A stretch of 62,752 nucleotides of DNA, counting the filler, from Stramenopiles sp. TOSAG23-2 (taxonomy: Eukaryota): assembly GCA_900128395.1 (NCBI GenBank). It is 31 parts of 31 records of this genome, joined end to end, with 100 filler letters (N's around TTAATTAATTAA, not from the genome) between each part and the next. Parts side by side here need not be neighbours in the genome. Positions count along the whole stretch, not along the records: positions 8,177 to 10,114 come from LT652189.1; 30 more parts are not named here. One strand, given 5' to 3'. Shown piece by piece: positions 2-11,602 of the stretch. Position 1 is the stretch's first letter. Each line of letters opens with the position of its first letter. A program made the position numbers and the translations under genes. The notes below the pieces were generated by a model, which did no database searches, was not told the DNA's origin, and worked only from the letters and a program-made list of their open reading frames with translations.

Positions 2-1947
2 TCGACATCGCAAAATGCTAGTGTGGCAGAGATTGAATCATTAAAGAAAACATTGACAGATAAGGAAGCTGAATATGAAAATACTGTTAAATCAATGAAA
101 GAAAAAAATGTTGCTGATAATAAGAAGCGTTTACATGCAGTAAAAGTAAAATTTGAGAAAATGGAAACAAATTATAAATCCGAAATGTCAAAATTACAAA
201 CATCAAATGATGAAAATGTTACAAAAATGACTAAATTAAGTGAGGAGCTTGAAAAAGCTAAAAAAGATTTAGAAGCATCGCAAAGTGAAATTGAGCTTAC
301 GACGGGACAATTGAATAAAATAATGTCAGCAAATACCGATAATGAAAAAGCAAAAAGCAAATTTAAAGAAGATCACGATGCAAAAGTAAAATCATTAGAG
401 GAAACTCATACTTCCGCAATTAGAAAACATGTCGATGAAATAAAGTCATTGAAATCATCAATGGAAGAAGCAAAAGTAGAGAGAACGAATATGGAGACGA
501 AACATAAATCAGAAATGGATGGACTGGTATCAAACCATAAAAGTGAGATTGAAAAATTAAATAATGATTTTGCTACAAAAGAATCTGAAATAAAATCAAG
601 TTTATCGTCATCGCAAAATGCTAGTGTGGCAGAGATTGAATCATTAAAGAAAACATTGACAGATAAGGAAGCTGAATATGAAAATACTGTTAAATCTATG
701 AAAGAGAAAAATGTTGCTGATAATAAGAAGCGTTTGCATGCAGTAAAAGTAAAATTTGAGAATATGGAAACAAATTATAAATCCGAAATGTCAAAATTAC
801 AAACATCAAATGATGAAAATGTTACAAAAATGACTAAATTAAGTGAGGAGCTTGAAAAAGCTAAAAAAGATTTAGAGGCATTAATATCAAACCATAAAAG
901 TGAGATTGAAAAATTAAATAATGATTTTGCTACAAAAGAATCTGAAATAAAATCAAGTTTATCGTCATCGCAAAATGCTAGTGTGGCAGAGATTGAATCA
1001 TTAAAGAAAACATTGACAGATAAGGAAGCTGAATATGAAAATACTGTTAAATCTATGAAAGAGAAAAATGTTGCTGATAATAAGAAGCGTTTGCATGCAG
1101 TAAAAGTAAAATTTGAGAATATGGAAACAAATTATAAATCCGAAATGTCAAAATTACAAACATCAAATGATGAAAATGTTACAAAAATGACTAAATTAAG
1201 TGAGGAGCTTGAAAAAGCTAAAAAAGATTTAGAGGCATTAATATCAAACCATAAAAGTGAGATTGAAAAATTAAATAATGATTTTGCTACAAAAGAATCT
1301 GAAATAAAATCAAGTTTATCGTCATCGCAAAATGCTAGTGTGGCAGAGATTGAATCATTAAAGAAAACATTGACAGATAAGGAAGCTGAATATGAAAATA
1401 CTGTTAAATCTATGAAAGAGAAAAATGTTGCTGATAATAAGAAGCGTTTGCATGCAGTAAAAGTAAAATTTGAGAATATGGAAACAAATTATAAATCCGA
1501 AATGTCAAAATTACAAACATCAAATGATGAAAATGTTACAAAAATGACTAAATTAAGTGAGGAGCTTGAAAAAGCTAAAAAAGATTTAGAGGCATTAATA
1601 TCAAACCATAAAAGTGAGATTGAAAAATTAAATAATGATTTTGCTACAAAAGAATCTGAAATAAAATCAAGTTTATCGTCATCGCAAAATGCTAGTGTGG
1701 CAGAGATTGAATCATTAAAGAAAACATTGACAGATAAGGAAGCTGAATATGAAAATACTGTTAAATCAATGAAAGAGAAAAATGTTGCTGATAATAAGAA
1801 GCGTTTGCATGCAGTAAAAGTAAAATTTGAGAAAATGGAAACAAATTATAAATCCGAAATGTCAAAATTACAAACATCAAATGATGAAAATGTTACAAAA
1901 ATGACTAAATTAAGTGAGGAGCTTGAAAAAGCTAAAAAAGATTTAGG
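2..1947 (+). CDS. Internal fragment of a long coiled-coil tandem-repeat protein (119-aa units)
   Basis: Frame open across the whole scaffold; K/E/S-rich heptads; both ends truncated. Confidence 0.85.
604..1947 (+). repeat. 357-bp near-identical coding tandem repeat
   Basis: atcgtcatcgcaaaatgctagtgtggcag recurs at 604, 961, 1318 and 1675; the unit starting at 1 carries an extra 246 bp. Confidence 0.95.
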
Positions 1948-2047
1948 NNNNNNNNNNNNNNNNNNNNNNNNNNNNNNNNNNNNNNNNNNNNTTAATTAAT
2001 TAANNNNNNNNNNNNNNNNNNNNNNNNNNNNNNNNNNNNNNNNNNNN
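1948..2047. other. Artificial scaffold spacer, first of 30 such spacers
   Basis: N-run + TTAATTAATTAA (stops in all six frames) + N-run recurs about every 2 kb; intervening scaffolds shrink steadily in length. Confidence 0.98.
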
Positions 2048-3994
2048 GAAATAGTCATTGAGCGAATCGAAACAGAATATATTTCTCAGTCTTATTTTAC
2101 ACCAGAGGAAATAAAACGAGCATCATTAGCATGTGAAGGTTTATGTAAATGGATTATTGGCATGGTAAGGTATTTTCGTATAACGCAAACTATAAAGCCA
2201 CAACAAATGGCACTCAAAGAAGCGGAGGAAGATGTAATGTTTGCGAAAGAATTGTTAGCAAAAAAACAAAAGAACGTTTTATCAGCTGAAAAGCGTTTAA
2301 AACAACTTGAAAAGCAATTAACTCGTGCGTCTGATGATAAAAAATCAGTTATGCGGTTGGAGTCAGAAAGAGTGCGCTGGGAAGCTGCATTAGAGGCCAT
2401 CAGTGTAGATGGAGCAACCATTCCTGCGGATGCTCTGCTATCTGCAGCGTATGTAGCATACTGTGGTCCATTTAGTATGGATCAACGAAAGGATATGTTT
2501 TCCAAATGGGGTAAAATTGTGCACATGAATAAATTGGACACTGCTATGGTAATAGAAGATGATGATGATAAAAGTTTTATCTCAGCAACTTTTGATCCAA
2601 AATGTGTCCTTATTCAGGAGGATGATATTTTACGTTGGGTGTCCACTGGTTTACCGAATGACAATGGTTGTATTGGTAGCGCGATGATATTGACTGAAAA
2701 CATGGGACGCCGGCGTTGGCCATTGTTGATTGATCCATATGGTTTTGGTATGTACTGGATCAAAAATGTATATAGCAATGATATGGGTAAGCCTCTAACA
2801 AGNNNNNNNNNNNNNNNNNNNNNNNNCTAACAGTATCAGTTGATGATAAAAATATTGACATTATTGTATCTAGAGGAATTAAGGAAGGAATTACTGTTAT
2901 TATCGATTTGGGAACTACTACTAGGATTGACGAAAAATTTTCAAGCATACTAGCTTTGGAGGAAAATGTCTCTGACAACAGTGGTGGTACAAAGACAATT
3001 CCTCATGTAACATATAATAACGAACTTTTGGATTACGATCAAGATTTCAAGCTGGTTTTTGTGACCCAATCTAAGTTATCAAGTGATCAATCATGTTCGC
3101 AACCTACGATTTTGTTTGCCTTATCGTCAAAAGCATTGGAGAAAGAATTATTATGGATTATTTCGTATGAAGTGTTACCGGAAGAATCTGAAATTAGACA
3201 AAACGCTATGTCAGCGCAGGCTAGACTCAGCACTGAAAGTAAGCGATTACAAAATGAAATCTTAGAGTTGTTAAATGAATCTGAAGGTAGTATGATGGAA
3301 GATGAGAATTTATTACGTGTTTTGAATGATTCAAGGAGAAAAACTTCCGAGTGCCAACATGCTATGAAGAGTGCACGTAACAAAATAATACAATCCTCGG
3401 AAAAAATCGAATGGTTTAGACCATTAACCGAACGTGCAGTATTGTTGTATAAAATTTTAGCTAAAATGCAAGAATCGAAACCTGCATATAATTTCTCTCT
3501 AACGTGGTTTATATGTATTCTGTTGACAATAATTCGAGATGACGAAGATATTCTTGTAACGGAGAAAGATGAAAGTGAAACTGTGGATGAGAGGGATGGA
3601 AAAAAAAGTAAAAGGAAAAAAACAAAGCATGTGGATCGAGATGCGTCATCGTTAGCCTTCATGATATACTCTACTGTAATCTCTCGAGAAGATTATCTAT
3701 TGCAAAATAAAGGTAAAAAAACTGAAAGTGCTGCAAAGGTTGAAGTAGTAGTTCAAGATTTACATTATAACGATGAAGGGGAGAATAATGTTTCCGAAGA
3801 AAATATATTTCAGCAACAAATGAATAAAATTAAAGATGCAGTTGTTTTATTGACAGAAAGAGTTATTCAAGATGCTGGCATGGGTATGTTTTTAGAAGAC
3901 CATGTGTCGTTTGCATCAGCAATTTGTATCGAAATATTACAATTGTCTGATAAAGAAAAGGATATGGTTTCCAGGAATGCCGACTCATTTGAAC
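2048..3994 (+). CDS. Divergent dynein heavy chain fragment (stalk/MTBD, CC2, AAA5, strut), interrupted by an internal N gap
   Basis: Upstream-open frame FTPEEIKRASLACEGLCKWIIGM; ERVRW; DALLSAAYVAYCGPF; GLPND; RRWPLLIDPYG; EILELLNESEGSMMEDENLL; YNFSLTWF. Confidence 0.85.
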
Positions 3995-4318
3995 NNNNNN
4001 NNNNNNNNNNNNNNNNNNNNNNNNNNNNNNNNNNNNNNTTAATTAATTAANNNNNNNNNNNNNNNNNNNNNNNNNNNNNNNNNNNNNNNNNNNNAGATAA
4101 ACGTGGGTATTTGTGCTTGTGGGAGTAAGCGTTTAAAAATATACGTATCATTTTGTTTAATTATAATTTTACAAATATCATTACGTTCGTTCGTATGAGT
4201 ACAAAATGAGAAACCTGGTATACTACGAGGTATATATATATTAACTTTTGAGATATATTGTCGTGTCTAATTGTCTAATATTATATTTTACATTATCTAT
4301 AAACAACTATAATAATTT

Positions 4319-5674
4319 TTACGAAGCATTCAACCTATTTTTACCAATTATTTGATCTTTCCTTGCCCTTCTTTCATCAGCAGTTTCTCGTTTCCGTCTA
4401 TTACCACTACTACTACGTTTTTTTTTCCTTCTACCACCTAAATTTACTTTCTTTAATACTTTAATACGATCATAGCTTTTTTTTCTATCCATAACAAAAC
4501 CAGCCCTTGGAACATGCTTCCATTCTTTTCTTGCACTTTCATATGGTAATAAGCGAAATGTTTTATTTCCAATGCGTTCATTTGCTTCATCTATCACATT
4601 GCGTTCTTTTACATTGATTAAATTGTTCTTACTAGCTAAATTTATTTTCGATTTAACATTCTTGGCACTTTTTTTCAAAGAATCTGCTCCAGCTTTCATC
4701 ATTATTCGTTTTGGACTTTTACCATTACGCCCAACCTGCCCATCAAACAACATTCCTAATTGCTCATCTTCATCTAATGTATATGCAACACCTTTATAAA
4801 CCTTAACAGTAGTTCCATATGCATATCTTATCCGTCTACCTTTTTGAGATTCTAAAGCAGATTTAAAATTAGCAGTTTTTGTTTTTCTATTCCAGGGTTG
4901 CTTCATTTGTTTTTTTGACATTGCAGGTCTAGCAACGCATTCATTATATGCATGAATTGCTTTACCAGTCAATTCCCTTCTGCGCCTGGTTGATCTAGGT
5001 CGTATACGATGTGGGTTTACAGTTTCCATGTCTTTTCTAAAATCATCTGGTCTATCGTATTGCGTGGAACTATTCCATGACTGTGCCGTTTTTGGTCGTG
5101 TACGCCCACCGTACATTACACGATGATTTTGGTAATCAGTAAAGCGAATTCGACCACGTATAGCTGGTCTTTCAAAATATTGTTGGCGTTGTGATGGTGC
5201 TAATATGGCTGCTGGTTCTAACGAAGGTTCTTCCTCAACAACTTTTGGTTTTCTACTAACAAAATGTTCCTTATTTGCAACTTCCTCTTCTACTTCTTCT
5301 GGGGGTTGAAAATTTGAGAAAGATACTACGTTTGGGTTATCTTTATTTAATAAAGATGTCATACTACCAAAATCAACGCTTGGATTTGCTATTAATGTTT
5401 TTTTACTTTTCCTATTTTTTTTATCATTGTCGTTTTTATTTGCATTATTATTATTATTATTTTTCACTGGGGAACGGATTGATGCTTTTCCAATACCACC
5501 TATATTTTTCTTTGAGGATGAAGCACCACCAATACCCAGTTTACCACTATCTTTTTTTCGAGATGGTGATATGTGAGACAATGGTGATTTTTTACTATTA
5601 ACTGGTTCTTTTGGTACATCTTTCACAGTAAAAGAAAACTTTACGACTTCATCTGAAAATAATTGAGCTGCCAT
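4319..5674 (-). CDS. Hypothetical basic (K/R-rich) low-complexity protein
   Basis: Complete 451-aa ATG-initiated ORF in AT-rich flanks; no recognisable domain. Confidence 0.7.
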   Translation of the reverse strand: MAAQLFSDEVVKFSFTVKDVPKEPVNSKKSPLSHISPSRKKDSGKLGIGGASSSKKNIGGIGKASIRSPVKNNNNNNANKNDNDKKNRKSKKTLIANPSVDFGSMTSLLNKDNPNVVSFSNFQPPEEVEEEVANKEHFVSRKPKVVEEEPSLEPAAILAPSQRQQYFERPAIRGRIRFTDYQNHRVMYGGRTRPKTAQSWNSSTQYDRPDDFRKDMETVNPHRIRPRSTRRRRELTGKAIHAYNECVARPAMSKKQMKQPWNRKTKTANFKSALESQKGRRIRYAYGTTVKVYKGVAYTLDEDEQLGMLFDGQVGRNGKSPKRIMMKAGADSLKKSAKNVKSKINLASKNNLINVKERNVIDEANERIGNKTFRLLPYESARKEWKHVPRAGFVMDRKKSYDRIKVLKKVNLGGRRKKKRSSSGNRRKRETADERRARKDQIIGKNRLNAS

Positions 5675-6503
5675 TTTACTACTAAATAATGTATTAATTA
5701 TATTAATTAATAATTATTTAATAATTATCTATGGTCTATTAAAACAATTATACCTACTATATTATAACTATCTATAAATTAGTATTATATATGACATATA
5801 CAAAAATTTGGGTATATCACTAGTTGATTGACTGTTTTTTTATATCGAAAGTTGAATGTTTAGTATTGCTTACTCTATTTCTTTCATTTGATCACACCAT
5901 ATATATATTTTTATAATAACAACGGTTAGTAATAATTCCATTTAGTAGTTACGTATAGTAGTTACGAATATTATTTATATAGTCTAGCTACTGTAGTAGT
6001 TACGCATAGTCCCTTACTAGATGTGGACTTGACGATNNNNNNNNNNNNNNNNNNNNNNNNNNNNNNNNNNNNNNNNNNNNTTAATTAATTAANNNNNNNN
6101 NNNNNNNNNNNNNNNNNNNNNNNNNNNNNNNNNNNNGCTGTTCATCAGGACGATTTGAAATCATCGTATTGATATTTGATGAAAAGAGTGTAATCTGGTA
6201 TAAGGTACATGTAGATATGCAGGTTTTAGATTTGACACATCAGGTTTCACCACTTCGTATAGTTTATTTTTTTTGATATTCTAATTTCCCTTTCAAGTAC
6301 AACTTATTGTAATTTGAATAGCGTAATACTGTTTCATGTGATTTCATATAAGACTCATATGAAATAAAAAAACTACGAAGAGTTCTCCACTTTAATAAAC
6401 CATTTAACTTGCTATTGTATTATAATTACTTCGTACTTTTATTTTACTTTTTTAAATTTTCATTTTTATATATATAATATATATTTATTATTTAAAAGCA
6501 TTT

Positions 6504-7279: not shown

Positions 7280-8177
7280 TTTTTGAAAAAAATACTTGCT
7301 TCAAATGTAGTGATACCGTTTCTTTTTTATGTAGGTGTCCGTATATATGGTTATTATGATTTATTATACATCTATACATCTACTTTAAAATGTGTGGTAC
7401 ATTACATGTATAGTTTCTATATACAATATACAGTATGATGTATGATGCACATATATTTTATTCTTTATTCCTACTATGCACCTGATATGTGCATATACAG
7501 TACATGTATGTGGCCAAAGAAAAGGGTCAAAAAATTGCATTTTTTCTATCTATTATATAATAGTGTGGGATCCAAGTACATCATATTCCTATCAAATACA
7601 GGTAGAACCGAGTGTGAGAAAATCACCCATCATAGCCAGATAGCTAGCCCATCTCATACCTCATATAACTTGATAGCTGGATAGCTTAAGCTGGATATTA
7701 TGCTGATGGATATAATAGCCAGGATAGCCAGATATTATTAGAATTATAGCTGGATATAATAGCGCAAAAAAAACTGCAAATAATATGCACATATGGATGG
7801 ATTGCCCAAATAGATATACAGTATATACATCAACATAAACAATACGACGTAATAATTGATATATAGACCGTAATAATTACAATAGTAATAATTACACACA
7901 CACATATATATAAACAACTAGGACTTCGTACTTTTGGTAGTTATAAATATCCATTACTGTATGAAAGATACATTACACATTAACATTTGTTGTTGTTGGT
8001 ATAGATTATATACCTGGTAACAAAGATATTTGTTATTTAAAGCGACTCAATATATTCATTTACATTTTAATCCATCNNNNNNNNNNNNNNNNNNNNNNNN
8101 NNNNNNNNNNNNNNNNNNNNTTAATTAATTAANNNNNNNNNNNNNNNNNNNNNNNNNNNNNNNNNNNNNNNNNNNNT

Positions 8178-10114
8178 ATCATCTACAAAGATGATAAAGA
8201 AGCTGAAGAACATTTTACACTGGGTCGATTAATCGACGTAACTGACGACACAAAATGCACTTTCTTTGTAAATTGGGAAGACAGCAAAACAGAGCGTGAA
8301 AGCATCGATATTATTGACTATTGGATAGTTGTCCAGATAGGGAATGAAACACCGAAAGATTTTGGAATGTTCAGATTATATTTTAATGTTGATCGAAATA
8401 AAAAGTATTGTAGCAAAGATAAAAATCCGAAAGTAGAAAAACCACCATTGGTATTTGATGAATTTGAGGTGGAGCTACTCGGCAATCCGCCTCAAAAAAA
8501 AATATTCCGGTCAAAAAACCATCATGCAAATACTCATACAATCAAAATCACATTGAAACCACAACGAAAACAAGAGCTATTTAGAAAAGTTATACGACAA
8601 AAAAAACGCCAACGGGATCAACAACAGGATGGAAATGGTAAAGCAATATTTAAAGAAGCTGAAATTGGTACTGCTCCAGCTGGTAACATAGTTTCATCGG
8701 TCGACTTGCTCATTTCCGAGGAAGACACACTCGGTTCAAAAAGTTTTTATAACATAAAAGCAAACCATGGTGAATTTGGTACATTAAAAGCACGTCAATT
8801 AAAAGTTACCAGCGATCCAAATTTTAAAACAATTATTTCAACATGTCCTAATAATATATTAAAATCAGTGACCAAAGATTTAGAATTATATATTTATGTA
8901 TGGCGTGATGAATATGGCAATTTAACTAGTGATATAGATGCTGGGCCAATGGCTGATCAATTATGGGAATTAAGCCAAAAAATAGGAATACCATTAGTAA
9001 CATTTCATGATGGTAGTCCAGTAAATTCTGAGGAAGAAATGAAAAATCGGGAGCAAAATGGTAAACATTTAATTGTATGCAATAATGCTTTAAATACATT
9101 AAATCTTCAATGTATAAAAGAATTAAAAGAACAGCAAGATATATTCCAAGAATTCACAGACGAACAAAAGAAATACGTTGAACAGTTTTCAATTGAATGT
9201 GAAAATATCAATAAAAATATCCAAACATTGATGAATCAAGTCGAGAAAAATAGAAATGATATTGAAAATAACAAGGCGCGTCTTAAAGCATTAGAAGACA
9301 ATAACAAGAAGAAACAATATCATCCTTTTCATATCATTCCATATAAAAATACAAAAGGAATTATATTTGTATGTATTGATTACCCTGAAAATATAAAAGA
9401 AGCAAATGCGATTGAAAAAATCACAAATGCAAAAATATTTAAAGGTACATTAGATGCATTTCGCGAAGAATTAAGCAAGGAAATATATACTTTTGTCCAT
9501 TTTATTGGTCATGGACAGATAACAATTGATACTACAAAACTAGAATTGACGTTTACTGATACAACTAGTACTCCACAAAAAATTCAATGTATTAAAATCG
9601 AAGTATTTCTAAAACTTTTGATACAAAATGACATAACATTATTTACAATGAGTGCATGTGAAACATCTCCTGTTGTGAAATTGTTTATTGAAAATGGTGG
9701 TTTATATGCCTACGGGTATAAGAAAAAAGTTGCCTCTGTTGCAGCGCCAATATTAAGTGAAGAATTTTACGAGCAACTTTTTAAAATGAATAAAACCCCT
9801 GAAAAGGCATTTGAATATGGTAAAACAGCTATTCTTACAAAAATTAAAGATATTCCTAAATGGGTCTTAAAAAATGAAATGCATGTGCATGAGCAAAAAT
9901 TTGATTTATTAAAAGACAATGAAGGTGGAGATCCAATTTTCAAAGAAAACGATGAAAAAATCAAAGAAATATACACTGAACGTGTAAAAGAATTGAACTT
10001 ATTGAGAGCATCAAAGGATGATACGTCCTTTTTAAAATTGGTTTTCAAATTTATTGAAAACCAAGAAAACTTTTCAAAAGTTATTGCTGCTCTAAACAAA
10101 AATGATGGGATGGA
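8178..10114 (+). CDS. Peptidase S74/ICA autocleavage domain + coiled coil + CHAT caspase-like protease (partial at both ends)
   Basis: TSDPNFK..LYIYVW..AGPMADQLWE..PLV..QCIKELK (S74); FVHFIGHG..LFTMSACETS..AAPILSEEFYEQL..AF (CHAT); frame open from 8178. Confidence 0.8.
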
Positions 10115-10690
10115 NNNNNNNNNNNNNNNNNNNNNNNNNNNNNNNNNNNNNNNNNNNNTTAATTAATTAANNNNNNNNNNNNNNNNNNNNNNNNNNNNNN
10201 NNNNNNNNNNNNNNTTATGAAAATTTTCCATGTCTAATTAGCATTTGGAAAAAGAGAAAATGAGGAGAGATGGGAGAAGAGGGGTAAAATGTACGAAACG
10301 TACAGAGAGAACTTAAAAATATTACGGGTGTAAAAAATACATTCTTTATATATAATCATATATATATATATATATTTAAATGAAACATGGAGCGAAGTTT
10401 TGGTGTGTTATGTTATTTTACACGGGCTCCTTCTTCTTTGTTTTTCTCAAGGTTTTTTCTTCTTGCATATTCTTTTTGACTTTCACATTATGAAAATTTT
10501 CCATGTCTAATTAGCATTTGGAAAAAGAGAAAATGAGGAGAGGTGGGAGAAGAGGGGAGAGATATACGAACGGTTCGTATGTACAATGTTTGAAACGTAC
10601 AGAGAACTTAAAAATGTACGGTGTAAAAGATATATTCTTTATATAAATATTATATAAATGAAACATAGAGCGAAGTTTTGGTGTGTTATG

Positions 10691-11602
10691 TTATTTTACA
10701 CGGGCTCCTTCTTCTTTGTTTTTCTCAAGGTTTTTTCTTCTTGCATATTCTTTTTGACTTTCACGAGATCCATATACAAAACCATGTTTATCCAAGCCTC
10801 GAGTAGAAGTTTTAAATGTGAAAGATCCATATGTATGTGCTCCTAAATAATGCATATGTAAAACAATTTTTGCTGTATTGCGACTATCAATAAGACCATC
10901 ATGTGCTCTACCATCAAATGTCATTCCAAGTCGTTCAACGCATTTTTGCAATCCACGAGCATCTTTTGTTTTATAATGTCGACGAAATAATACTTTTAAA
11001 TCAATCCATCGATCAAATACTTTAGGTATTGTATACTTTTTATACATTAACTCTTTTGCTAATTGTGAAATATCCGCATCCGACCAAGTTGTTATATACC
11101 ATTTACCAACTCTTTCATTATCTTTATTTATTAAATTATGTTTCTTCAGCCATGATAGATATTTATCTAGTGCATTAGGTAATGTTGGGGCATTATTGAC
11201 CATTTGTTGGGTAATACCTGTCAACTCAATCGAAAATTTTGTTAGGGTTGGATTCAAAACAGGTCGAACATATGTATTGAATTCATCTATTATTCTGCTA
11301 TTTGGACCATCCAATTTCACTAGTACTGATGGAAACTGTGTGATTTCCGAGATAGGCTCTACTTTTTGTCGGTTATCTGCTGTCCATTCAAAATCCAATA
11401 CGACTAAATGTGTTAATGCTGGTAAATTTTTTTTACGTTTTTTATTTTTAAAATCAGCAGCTGTTGGTGGACGTAAGCTACCCCATCCTTTGCGTTTCTT
11501 TTTTTTAGTAGTGATAATGGTGGTAGAGGTAGTGGAACTATTCAAAGACGTATTATTTATTTTCGAAAAGGAGGAAGAGGAGGACGAGAAGGAGGATGCC
11601 AT
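10691..11602 (-). CDS. ERI1/ERI2/ERI3-family DEDDh 3'-5' exoribonuclease
   Basis: VVLDFEWT, EITQFP, YVRPVLNPTLTKFSIELTGITQ, WIDLK, GRAHDGLIDSRNTA. Confidence 0.9.
   Translation of the reverse strand: MASSFSSSSSSFSKINNTSLNSSTTSTTIITTKKKKRKGWGSLRPPTAADFKNKKRKKNLPALTHLVVLDFEWTADNRQKVEPISEITQFPSVLVKLDGPNSRIIDEFNTYVRPVLNPTLTKFSIELTGITQQMVNNAPTLPNALDKYLSWLKKHNLINKDNERVGKWYITTWSDADISQLAKELMYKKYTIPKVFDRWIDLKVLFRRHYKTKDARGLQKCVERLGMTFDGRAHDGLIDSRNTAKIVLHMHYLGAHTYGSFTFKTSTRGLDKHGFVYGSRESQKEYARRKNLEKNKEEGARVK

Follow-up and report, generated by a model that had tools for sequence, protein, structure and literature searches.

Outside viruses, the only well-described use of the S74/ICA domain in eukaryotes is, to our knowledge, that of MYRF and its Dictyostelium counterpart MrfA. 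Published work on MyRF places its cut between P586 and S587, with a catalytic dyad of S587 and K592 and with Tyr615 and Tyr617 near the site, and states that this Ser-Lys cleavage requires trimerisation via a C-terminal triple coiled coil (PMC8326128). After self-cleavage the N-terminal trimer goes to the nucleus (PMC3742443, PMC8326128). In the fibres of phages and polinton-like viruses, the ICA domain is found at the extreme C-terminus and is discarded. NLR receptors are built in the order effector, NTPase and leucine-rich repeats (LRRs), with swappable N-terminal modules, and in NLRP1 and CARD8 autoproteolysis of the FIIND leaves two fragments. The SAVED-CHAT protease, for which the structure 8tl0 is available (10.1101/2024.05.08.593092), is reported to be activated through oligomerisation into filaments (10.1101/2023.06.23.546230). 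Here we describe an open reading frame (ORF) at positions 8178 to 10112 (plus strand) of a stretch of 62,752 nucleotides from the Stramenopiles sp. TOSAG23-2 assembly GCA_900128395.1, called the window below, in which an S74/ICA domain is followed by a CHAT caspase-like protease.

Judged against its relatives, this S74-CHAT ORF represents only part of a protein that exceeds 1400 residues, and it lies on an unplaced contig; the initial annotation had taken it for a complete two-domain protein in its genomic context. From its N-terminus the whole protein would comprise an N-terminal domain (N-domain), a basic patch, a short stalk, the S74/ICA domain, a coiled coil of ~70 residues, the CHAT protease, a superfamily 1 (SF1; Dda/Schlafen-group-3-like) ATPase and LRRs. 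We hold the domain identities and the architecture as described here with high confidence.

As in MYRF and MrfA, the S74/ICA domain is internal and carries an S-x4-K dyad, a stalk precedes it and a triple coiled coil follows, and a functional N-terminal part would likewise be released as a trimer while a large C-terminal part stays. The protein differs from them in that no NDT80/PhoG domain was detected, in lacking both a transmembrane segment and the MRF C-terminal domains, and in the protease, helicase-like ATPase and LRRs that come after the ICA domain. Phage tailspike and tail-fibre chaperones of the endosialidase type (3gud, 6f45) resemble it in that their sequences align with the family profile from the serine at the cut to the last helix, and in the modelled trimer; unlike the C-terminal domain of the phage and polinton-like virus fibres, its ICA domain would lie close to the N-terminal end of a multidomain cytosolic protein. 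Among CHAT proteins of prokaryotic defence, SAVED-CHAT (8tl0) is the best match in both sequence and fold, with the His-Cys dyad aligned, whereas our protein is eukaryotic, has no SAVED sensor, and would oligomerise through the ICA/coiled-coil trimer and perhaps the ATPase. The analogy with NLR receptors, and with NLRP1 and CARD8 in particular, lies in the order of effector, NTPase and LRRs, in swappable N-terminal modules and in an internal autoproteolytic domain. In contrast to those receptors, the ATPase is SF1 helicase-like (ResIII, SLFN-g3, Dda) and not NACHT or NB-ARC, and the self-cleaver is S74 and not ZU5-UPA.

The S74/ICA domain, the coiled coil and the CHAT protease

When the frame was translated and positions were recomputed, every motif quoted in the initial annotation was found where it had been placed, all in one open frame. 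The segment GTLKARQLKVTSDPNFK (residues 201-217, 8778-8828) ends in SDPNFK (8811-8828, plus strand), which supplies the S-x4-K dyad of Ser212 (8811-8813) and Lys217 (8826-8828); the predicted scissile bond is Thr211|Ser212. The S74/ICA part, assigned from Pfam, profile and trimer model, extends over 8811-9107 on the plus strand and includes Y238-x-Y240 (8889-8897) within YIYVW (8889-8903) and DAGPMA (8937-8954) within DAGPMADQLWE (8937-8969), with CIKELK following at 9111-9128. The Pfam family is Peptidase_S74 (PF13884), with a cut-off of 22 bits. The match of the window to PF13884 covers profile positions 1-54 of 58 and begins exactly at Ser212; Pfam did not list the family for the whole translation (P0001) or for one other sub-fragment of it. 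The homologue P0011 and its longer cluster mate P0019 score 40.8 bits, and the full-length relative on the metagenomic locus L001 scores 17.9 bits on its own. Each of the four family members with coverage of the site keeps the S-D-x-x-x-K dyad, with Y-x-Y (Tyr238, Tyr240) and DAGPMA downstream.

An S74-only alignment (A4), five of whose six members match PF13884 at E<=1, was compared as a profile with PDB sequences. It matched the GA-1 neck appendage protein 3gud_A (E 1.8e-4) from chain residue 1, at SDERHK, and the long tail fibre distal subunit 6f45_A (E 8.6e-4) over the entire domain and the last helix, while the other 10 matches had E>=0.4. Ser212 is thus aligned to residue 1 of the released GA-1 chaperone. 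A further relative, P0020, matches the tail fibre of cyanophage P-SSM2 (E 3e-4), and P0019 finds tail-fibre PHROGs with E values as low as 2.1e-9. The S74 part of P0019, P0011 and P0020 is 27% identical to that of the window, and their source is less AT-rich. Multicystatin, the top PDB match of another family profile (A1; E 2.4e-5), was dismissed as irrelevant to the window, since it falls on columns held by P0011 only. The S74/ICA call accordingly stands, on a sub-threshold Pfam match in the window, a clear match in a homologue, family-profile matches to phage ICA chaperones and a homotrimer model.

The coiled coil (residues ~305-375, 9090-9302, plus strand), identified by heptad score and by the trimer model, extends the last ICA helix. 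Between S74 and CHAT, residues 305-378 are heptad-periodic, contain no Pro or Gly, and have the strongest heptad score in the protein (0.5-0.68); in a model of L001 the helix spans residues 318-402. The homotrimer check proposed with the initial annotation was run with three copies of residues 150-372 and gave a score of 0.90, against 0.00 for the best of three controls, a result in which the model's memory of solved trimers may play a part. In calibration, 21 of the 30 proteins known as same-chain pairs attained this mark, and none of the 23 solved as single chains did. Contact agreement between the trimer runs was at least 85% and partner predicted local distance difference test (pLDDT) values were at least 81. 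In the model the chains meet along the stalk and cleavage site (residues 186-224), in the ICA core and at the heptad positions, and residues 239-240 of one chain contact residues 219-221 of the next. Down the helix, residues 316, 351, 355, 358, 362 and 365 each contact their own counterpart on another chain, and the model is therefore that of a parallel, in-register trimeric coiled coil. The stalk before the cleavage site (residues ~158-211, 8649-8810, plus strand) contributes its residues 186-211 to this interface.

The CHAT domain (Pfam match over residues 400-549, 9375-9824, plus strand) carries His445 (9510-9512) in VHFIGHG (9495-9515) and Cys494 (9657-9659) in MSACET (9648-9665), and AAPILSEEFYEQLFKMNKTPEKAF follows at 9741-9812. 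Pfam assigns CHAT (PF12770) at E 2.1e-6 and 27.8 bits against a cut-off of 24; the remaining seven Pfam rows for the translation are sub-threshold and lie on or beside the coiled-coil stretch. A profile of 11 family sequences (A2) found 8tl0_A (SAVED-CHAT, E 8.5e-6) as the sole PDB sequence at E<=1, with HFIGHG on HFIGHG and the Cys motifs aligned (His445/Cys494). In the family alignment, conservation of the Cys reaches at least 90%, and every row covering the His has it except that of P0014. An AlphaFold2 model of residues 375-645 had a mean pLDDT of 64.2 and a predicted template modelling score of 0.61, with core blocks at 69-91. All five Foldseek matches of this model at E<=0.001 were chains of 8tl0 (E 1.3e-5 to 1.4e-4), and the next were the caspase Dronc 2fp3 (3.6e-3) and the paracaspase MALT1 6f7i (8.1e-3). 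The CHAT call was therefore confirmed by a Pfam score above cut-off, by the profile match to 8tl0_A and by the fold model, with its His-Cys dyad conserved in the family; both proposed dyads, Ser212/Lys217 and His445/Cys494, are present here and conserved among relatives. A helical region after CHAT (residues 561-645, 9858-10112, plus strand) is truncated by the contig end, and in the relatives L001 and L002 it leads into the helicase-like ATPase.

Relatives, module exchange and the rest of the protein

An exhaustive HMMER search of 1.84 billion protein representatives gave 14 matches to the S74-CHAT protein, and two further loci, L001 (4863 bp) and L002 (5687 bp), came from scanning metagenome contigs. 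L001 encodes one ORF of 1411 residues (P0016) that is 59% identical to our protein (370/627) over residues 22-644. The initial annotation had proposed that the same domain order be sought among other sequences, and this single ORF, on an independent contig, repeats it: after a low-complexity N-terminus come the N-domain, basic patch, SDPNFK/S74, coiled coil, CHAT, SF1 helicase-like ATPase and LRRs. In Pfam, L001 matches CHAT (18.2 bits), ResIII (34.9-36.5 bits) and SLFN-g3_helicase (24.5-24.6 bits, cut-off 24), and its ATPase motifs are a Walker A GFAGTGKT, the DEAH motif VVIDEAHH and a YRAITRAK-type motif. The likeness to Schlafen group 3/DUF2075-type helicases is thus a match just over cut-off; it is weak, covers the N-terminal half of the profile only, and comes with no Schlafen core domain in our family. 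Over L001 and L002 together the ATPase matches ResIII, SLFN-g3_helicase and AAA_22, with nSTAND_NTPase5 at 16.2 bits, well below its cut-off (34). A three-sequence ATPase profile found T4 Dda (E 3.7e-4, Walker A part only) as its sole PDB match below E 0.01. The LRRs of the relatives have a period of 26 residues and reach 20.9 bits for LRR_1 (cut-off 20.6), 21.7-22.8 for LRR_6 (23.4) and up to 24.7 for LRR_4 (27). At L001 4834-4863 the LRR motif NNITDVQSIG continues out of frame past the apparent stop, suggesting a one-base indel or an error; L001 is thus incomplete at its 3' end, and the LRR array runs off the contig.

The L002 protein (464-5687) lacks S74: its 570 N-terminal residues are followed by two tandem CHAT domains (61.7 bits), ResIII (44.9 bits) and LRRs. 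It consists of two ORFs joined at a frameshift in a G run (2164-2170). A shared N-terminal part was considered and rejected, as the 570 residues of L002 are unrelated to the N-terminus of L001. P0011 (886 residues) matches residues 199-338 of our protein at E 4.7e-6. Together with P0019 it shows the N-domain, basic patch, S74, coiled coil, about 300 unassigned residues and an ATPase of the same type, with no CHAT domain, so that the pairing of S74 with the ATPase either predates insertion of CHAT or has outlived its loss. P0002, from a eukaryote proteome collection, is 65% identical over residues 5-273. A simple hydrophobic-window scan found no transmembrane stretch in P0001, P0016, P0017 or P0019.

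Other searches added little. The whole fragment gave nothing meaningful in NCBIfam or in a PDB phmmer search and no usable match in ESM Atlas. A word-index protein search at near length scored none of 7234 candidates, and a query with residues 40-440 of L001 found only L001 itself. No relatives of P0016 or P0019 were found in prokaryote genome contigs, in scans sensitive to close relatives only. A promoter scan of L001 and folding of the junction RNA (z 0.49) were uninformative.

Nucleotide comparison with the two loci shows that the gene is mosaic. From 8717 to 9256 it is ~89% identical to L001 and from 9274 to 10114 it is 95.5% identical to L002, which places a breakpoint at 9257-9280 (plus strand); the N-domain is ~50% identical to L001. 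Synonymous divergence (dS) from L001 is 0.24 in S74, 0.51 in the coiled coil and 0.92 in CHAT and is saturated in the N-domain, and dS from L002 in CHAT is 0.07. The ratio of nonsynonymous to synonymous divergence (dN/dS) is below 1 in each module with unsaturated dS for the two relatives, and against the nearest relatives it is 0.31 for S74 and 0.28 for CHAT. Differences of several-fold in dS combined with purifying selection fit recombination or conversion among paralogues or alleles. Two metagenome fragments cross the breakpoint, P0006 (query residues 352-412) and P0009 (354-415), as does an RNA contig from an oligo-dT library (X15 record 1, on 9162-9312). Many metagenome contigs diverge near the junction of coiled coil and CHAT, with loose ends at 9204, 9237, 9242, 9276, 9279, 9334 and 9347, which fit a module boundary where relatives differ.

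Upstream of the stalk lies a beta-rich N-terminal domain (residues 1-126, 8178-8555, plus strand) with a conserved FFVNW..IGNE core, including FRLYFNV (8370-8390) and IFRSK (8502-8516); its first ~40-90 residues are not on the contig. The suggestion in the initial annotation that this part is an Ig-like or DNA-binding fold found no support. Pfam gave no match at E<=10 for residues 1-181 and only DUF rows at E>=0.058 for the N-domain of L001, and PDB sequences gave none at E<=10. Its ESM Atlas scores of 0.75-0.78 are below the useful level. The fold model of the N-domain has pLDDT 22-43 (whole-model mean 44.8), too poor to use, and a wide structure search with it in VIA-align returned a long helix only, at Z ~7, a common arrangement. 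The basic patch KPQRKQELFRKVIRQKKRQRD (residues 127-147, 8556-8618, plus strand) was recognised by charge count and in relatives and may act as a nuclear localisation signal (NLS). Residues 121-150 contain 11 K/R against 2 D/E, and the patch is at the equivalent position in L001, P0002 and P0011.

The contig, its source and its expression

The window strings together about 31 small contigs or scaffolds, arranged in order of falling length (1947 to 1910 bp). Between them stand N-runs around the six-frame-stop linker TTAATTAATTAA, which occurs 30 times against 0.19 expected, at ~2-kb spacing. The window is therefore a concatenation of unrelated contigs, flanking DNA and neighbouring ORFs provide no context for the S74-CHAT gene, and gene-neighbourhood arguments across any copy of the linker, anywhere in 1-62752, are unsafe. 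The entire finding is contained in one contig of 1938 bp (8177-10114, GC content 0.307), bounded on either side by an N-run, linker and N-run (8077-8176 with the linker at 8121-8132, and 10115-10214 with the linker at 10159-10170). Its trinucleotide composition is close to that of the rest of the window (r 0.967, rank 11/33). The partial coding sequence P0001 spans the contig from first base to last, with no stop in 645 codons and with neither its own start nor its own stop. The first ATG, at 8367, is not the true start, because P0002, P0008 and L001 align upstream of it. Measured against L001, about 60-90 N-terminal residues and the entire C-terminal half are missing from the window.

Pieces of the gene were found in sequencing runs. 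The best-matching run, which is small, may be the source; 14 further DNA-type runs, either unlabelled or labelled as marine or seawater metagenome, contain 18-28% of sampled words and six RNA runs contain 8-9%. Three marine DNA runs contain short contigs over the S74 and CHAT parts, and the pieces listed are ~85-99% identical; for instance, X4 has one on 8900-9242 with 17 differences and one on 9283-9721 with 10, and X3 has one on 9340-9721, also with 10. An oligo-dT RNA run has pieces on 9162-9312 (14 differences) and 9322-9619 (9 differences). Runs X2, X3, X4 and X15 cover 19, 25, 20 and 8 of 30 bins; no listed piece covers the whole stretch, which is no evidence either way. The marine DNA and poly(A) RNA pieces, the eukaryote relative P0002 and the window-like composition point to an AT-rich marine eukaryote as the origin. 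On these comparisons, the stretch is a real, expressed and truncated gene of such an organism.

The other contigs of the window contain no paralogue of the gene. They encode ankyrin, TPR, PAP2 and collagen-repeat proteins. The contig at 40676-42599 (plus strand) is filled by an ankyrin-repeat frame that is open at both ends (Ank_2, E 1.7e-102). On the minus strand, the contig at 28515-30443 has an open frame of 642 residues, in which Pfam recognises collagen triple-helix repeats (E 1.8e-52). The GC content of this contig (0.406) is the highest and its trinucleotide composition is an outlier (r 0.64 against 0.87-0.99 elsewhere), and it may come from a virus or another organism. At 10215-10700 a tandem duplication of ~270 bases, starting TTATGAAAATTTTCCATGTCTAATTAGC at ~10216 and ~10489, lies upstream of a 303-residue ORF on the minus strand (10691-11602).

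Competing explanations and significance

In the mechanism we propose, three chains would be assembled by the ICA domain and the coiled coil, and the Ser212/Lys217 dyad would cut between Thr211 and Ser212 only within the trimer. This would free a trimeric N-terminal fragment composed of the N-domain and basic patch. The remaining trimer would start at Ser212 and bring its three CHAT domains to adjoin one another, ~18 residues past the coiled coil, and the helicase-like ATPase and LRRs would sense a ligand and gate the protease. Trimerisation with self-cleavage seems to us probable. Two observations add weight to the idea of immunity or cell death, namely that full-length relatives go on to a helicase-like ATPase with LRRs and that relatives have shuffled their modules; we regard an immune or death role as a reasonable suggestion that falls somewhat short of an even chance. 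Taken as a whole, we lean towards a large cytosolic receptor of the sensor-switch-effector type that would serve immunity or regulated death and would include a self-cleavage step of the phage kind. A more specific and rather unlikely version, drawn by analogy, is a protist immune receptor with the ICA domain in the role of NLRP1's FIIND. Self-cleavage in the trimer would divide it into two trimers, an N-terminal one with the NLS and a body of CHAT, helicase and LRRs. On sensing a ligand, the helicase/LRR part of such a receptor would unleash the protease and free a nuclear signal, and the family would diversify via module swaps among paralogues.

The protein might instead signal in the manner of MYRF, with a constitutive ICA cut that releases the N-terminal trimer to the nucleus as a regulator and a C-terminal part that serves as a cytoplasmic anchor or regulator. 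The order of domain, basic patch, stalk, ICA and coiled coil is that of MYRF, and the position of the basic patch is conserved in four relatives. We consider this improbable, as neither Pfam nor PDB sequences give an NDT80/PhoG or other DNA-binding match in the N-domain, there is no membrane-spanning stretch to retain a precursor, and the protease, helicase and LRR parts and the module shuffling would be left unexplained. A gene derived from a virus or mobile element (for instance from a polinton-like or giant virus, or as an endogenous copy), whose fibre-type S74 and Dda-like helicase serve that element, is likewise improbable in our view. PF13884 is described as ubiquitous in the fibre proteins of protist polinton-like viruses (PMC12220804), the S74 of P0019 matches phage tail-fibre PHROGs while its ATPase matches a Dda-like helicase PHROG (E 1.4e-8), the helicase profile hit only T4 Dda in PDB below E 0.01, and the gene is multi-copy and mosaic. 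Against this, queries with A3, P0016 and P0019 found no relative in 2.9 million viral contigs, where only close relatives were detectable, and the S74 domain is internal, with more than 1000 residues after it, and not C-terminal in a repeat-rich fibre. The composition is that of the other window contigs, and LRRs with CHAT are typical of cellular receptors.

We give only a slim chance to a degenerate copy, in which one or both enzymes are dead and the ICA domain is retained as a trimerisation scaffold. The S74 score below the Pfam cut-off, the frameshifts in L001 and L002 and the absence of the His motif from P0014 would suit it, whereas the window retains Ser212/Lys217, Tyr238/Tyr240, His445 and Cys494, both modules have the low dN/dS ratios given above, and 645 codons pass without a stop. 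That the ORF is an assembly or amplification chimera of two unrelated genes is very improbable. The contig is small and unplaced, and its halves differ in nearest relative with a sharp switch at ~9257-9280; yet L001 has the same order in one ORF, P0006, P0009 and the RNA contig on 9162-9312 cross the switch point, and L001 and L002 share no junction sequence able to mislead an assembler.

Several points weigh against the receptor we favour. The window scores 20.1/20.3 bits for Peptidase_S74 (E 7.7e-4/6.9e-4), just below the cut-off, and its S74 part had no match in phage records by tblastn and none in PHROGs. The trimer score may reflect memory of solved ICA trimers in the model and so shows likeness, and the trimer was run as three copies without an alignment while the calibration used two. 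No independent, near-identical contig spans S74 to CHAT, and the link is made by a relative of 59% identity and by overlapping short fragments. The helicase and LRR parts are known from the relatives alone, as the window contig ends before them, and genomic context is absent for this contig. L001 and L002 are each frameshifted, so that some copies may be decaying or mis-assembled. Pfam finds no STAND NTPase of the NACHT or NB-ARC kind in the ATPase of L001 or L002, and PADLOC defence models gave nothing beyond a coiled-coil-type match (E 0.0047). Cleavage, proteolysis and a role in immunity or death are all inferred.

The architecture was unfamiliar to the initial annotation, and our literature searches likewise found no paper on the combination. 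No description of an S74-CHAT architecture was found in the literature searched, supplements excluded. Among the matches listed for Peptidase_S74 with CHAT in full texts there were only phage genomics papers, and Peptidase_S74 with eukaryotes and helicase led only to the polinton-like virus paper (PMC12220804). We therefore regard the architecture as a new combination of known types of part. If the reading as a sensor-switch-effector receptor is true, the family, seen here in an uncultured marine protist, would represent a second, independent eukaryotic use of the phage tailspike device and a new route to arm a CHAT protease, via a built-in trimer. It would also be a non-STAND receptor with internal autoproteolysis, and would bear on how immune receptors are built of viral and cellular parts.

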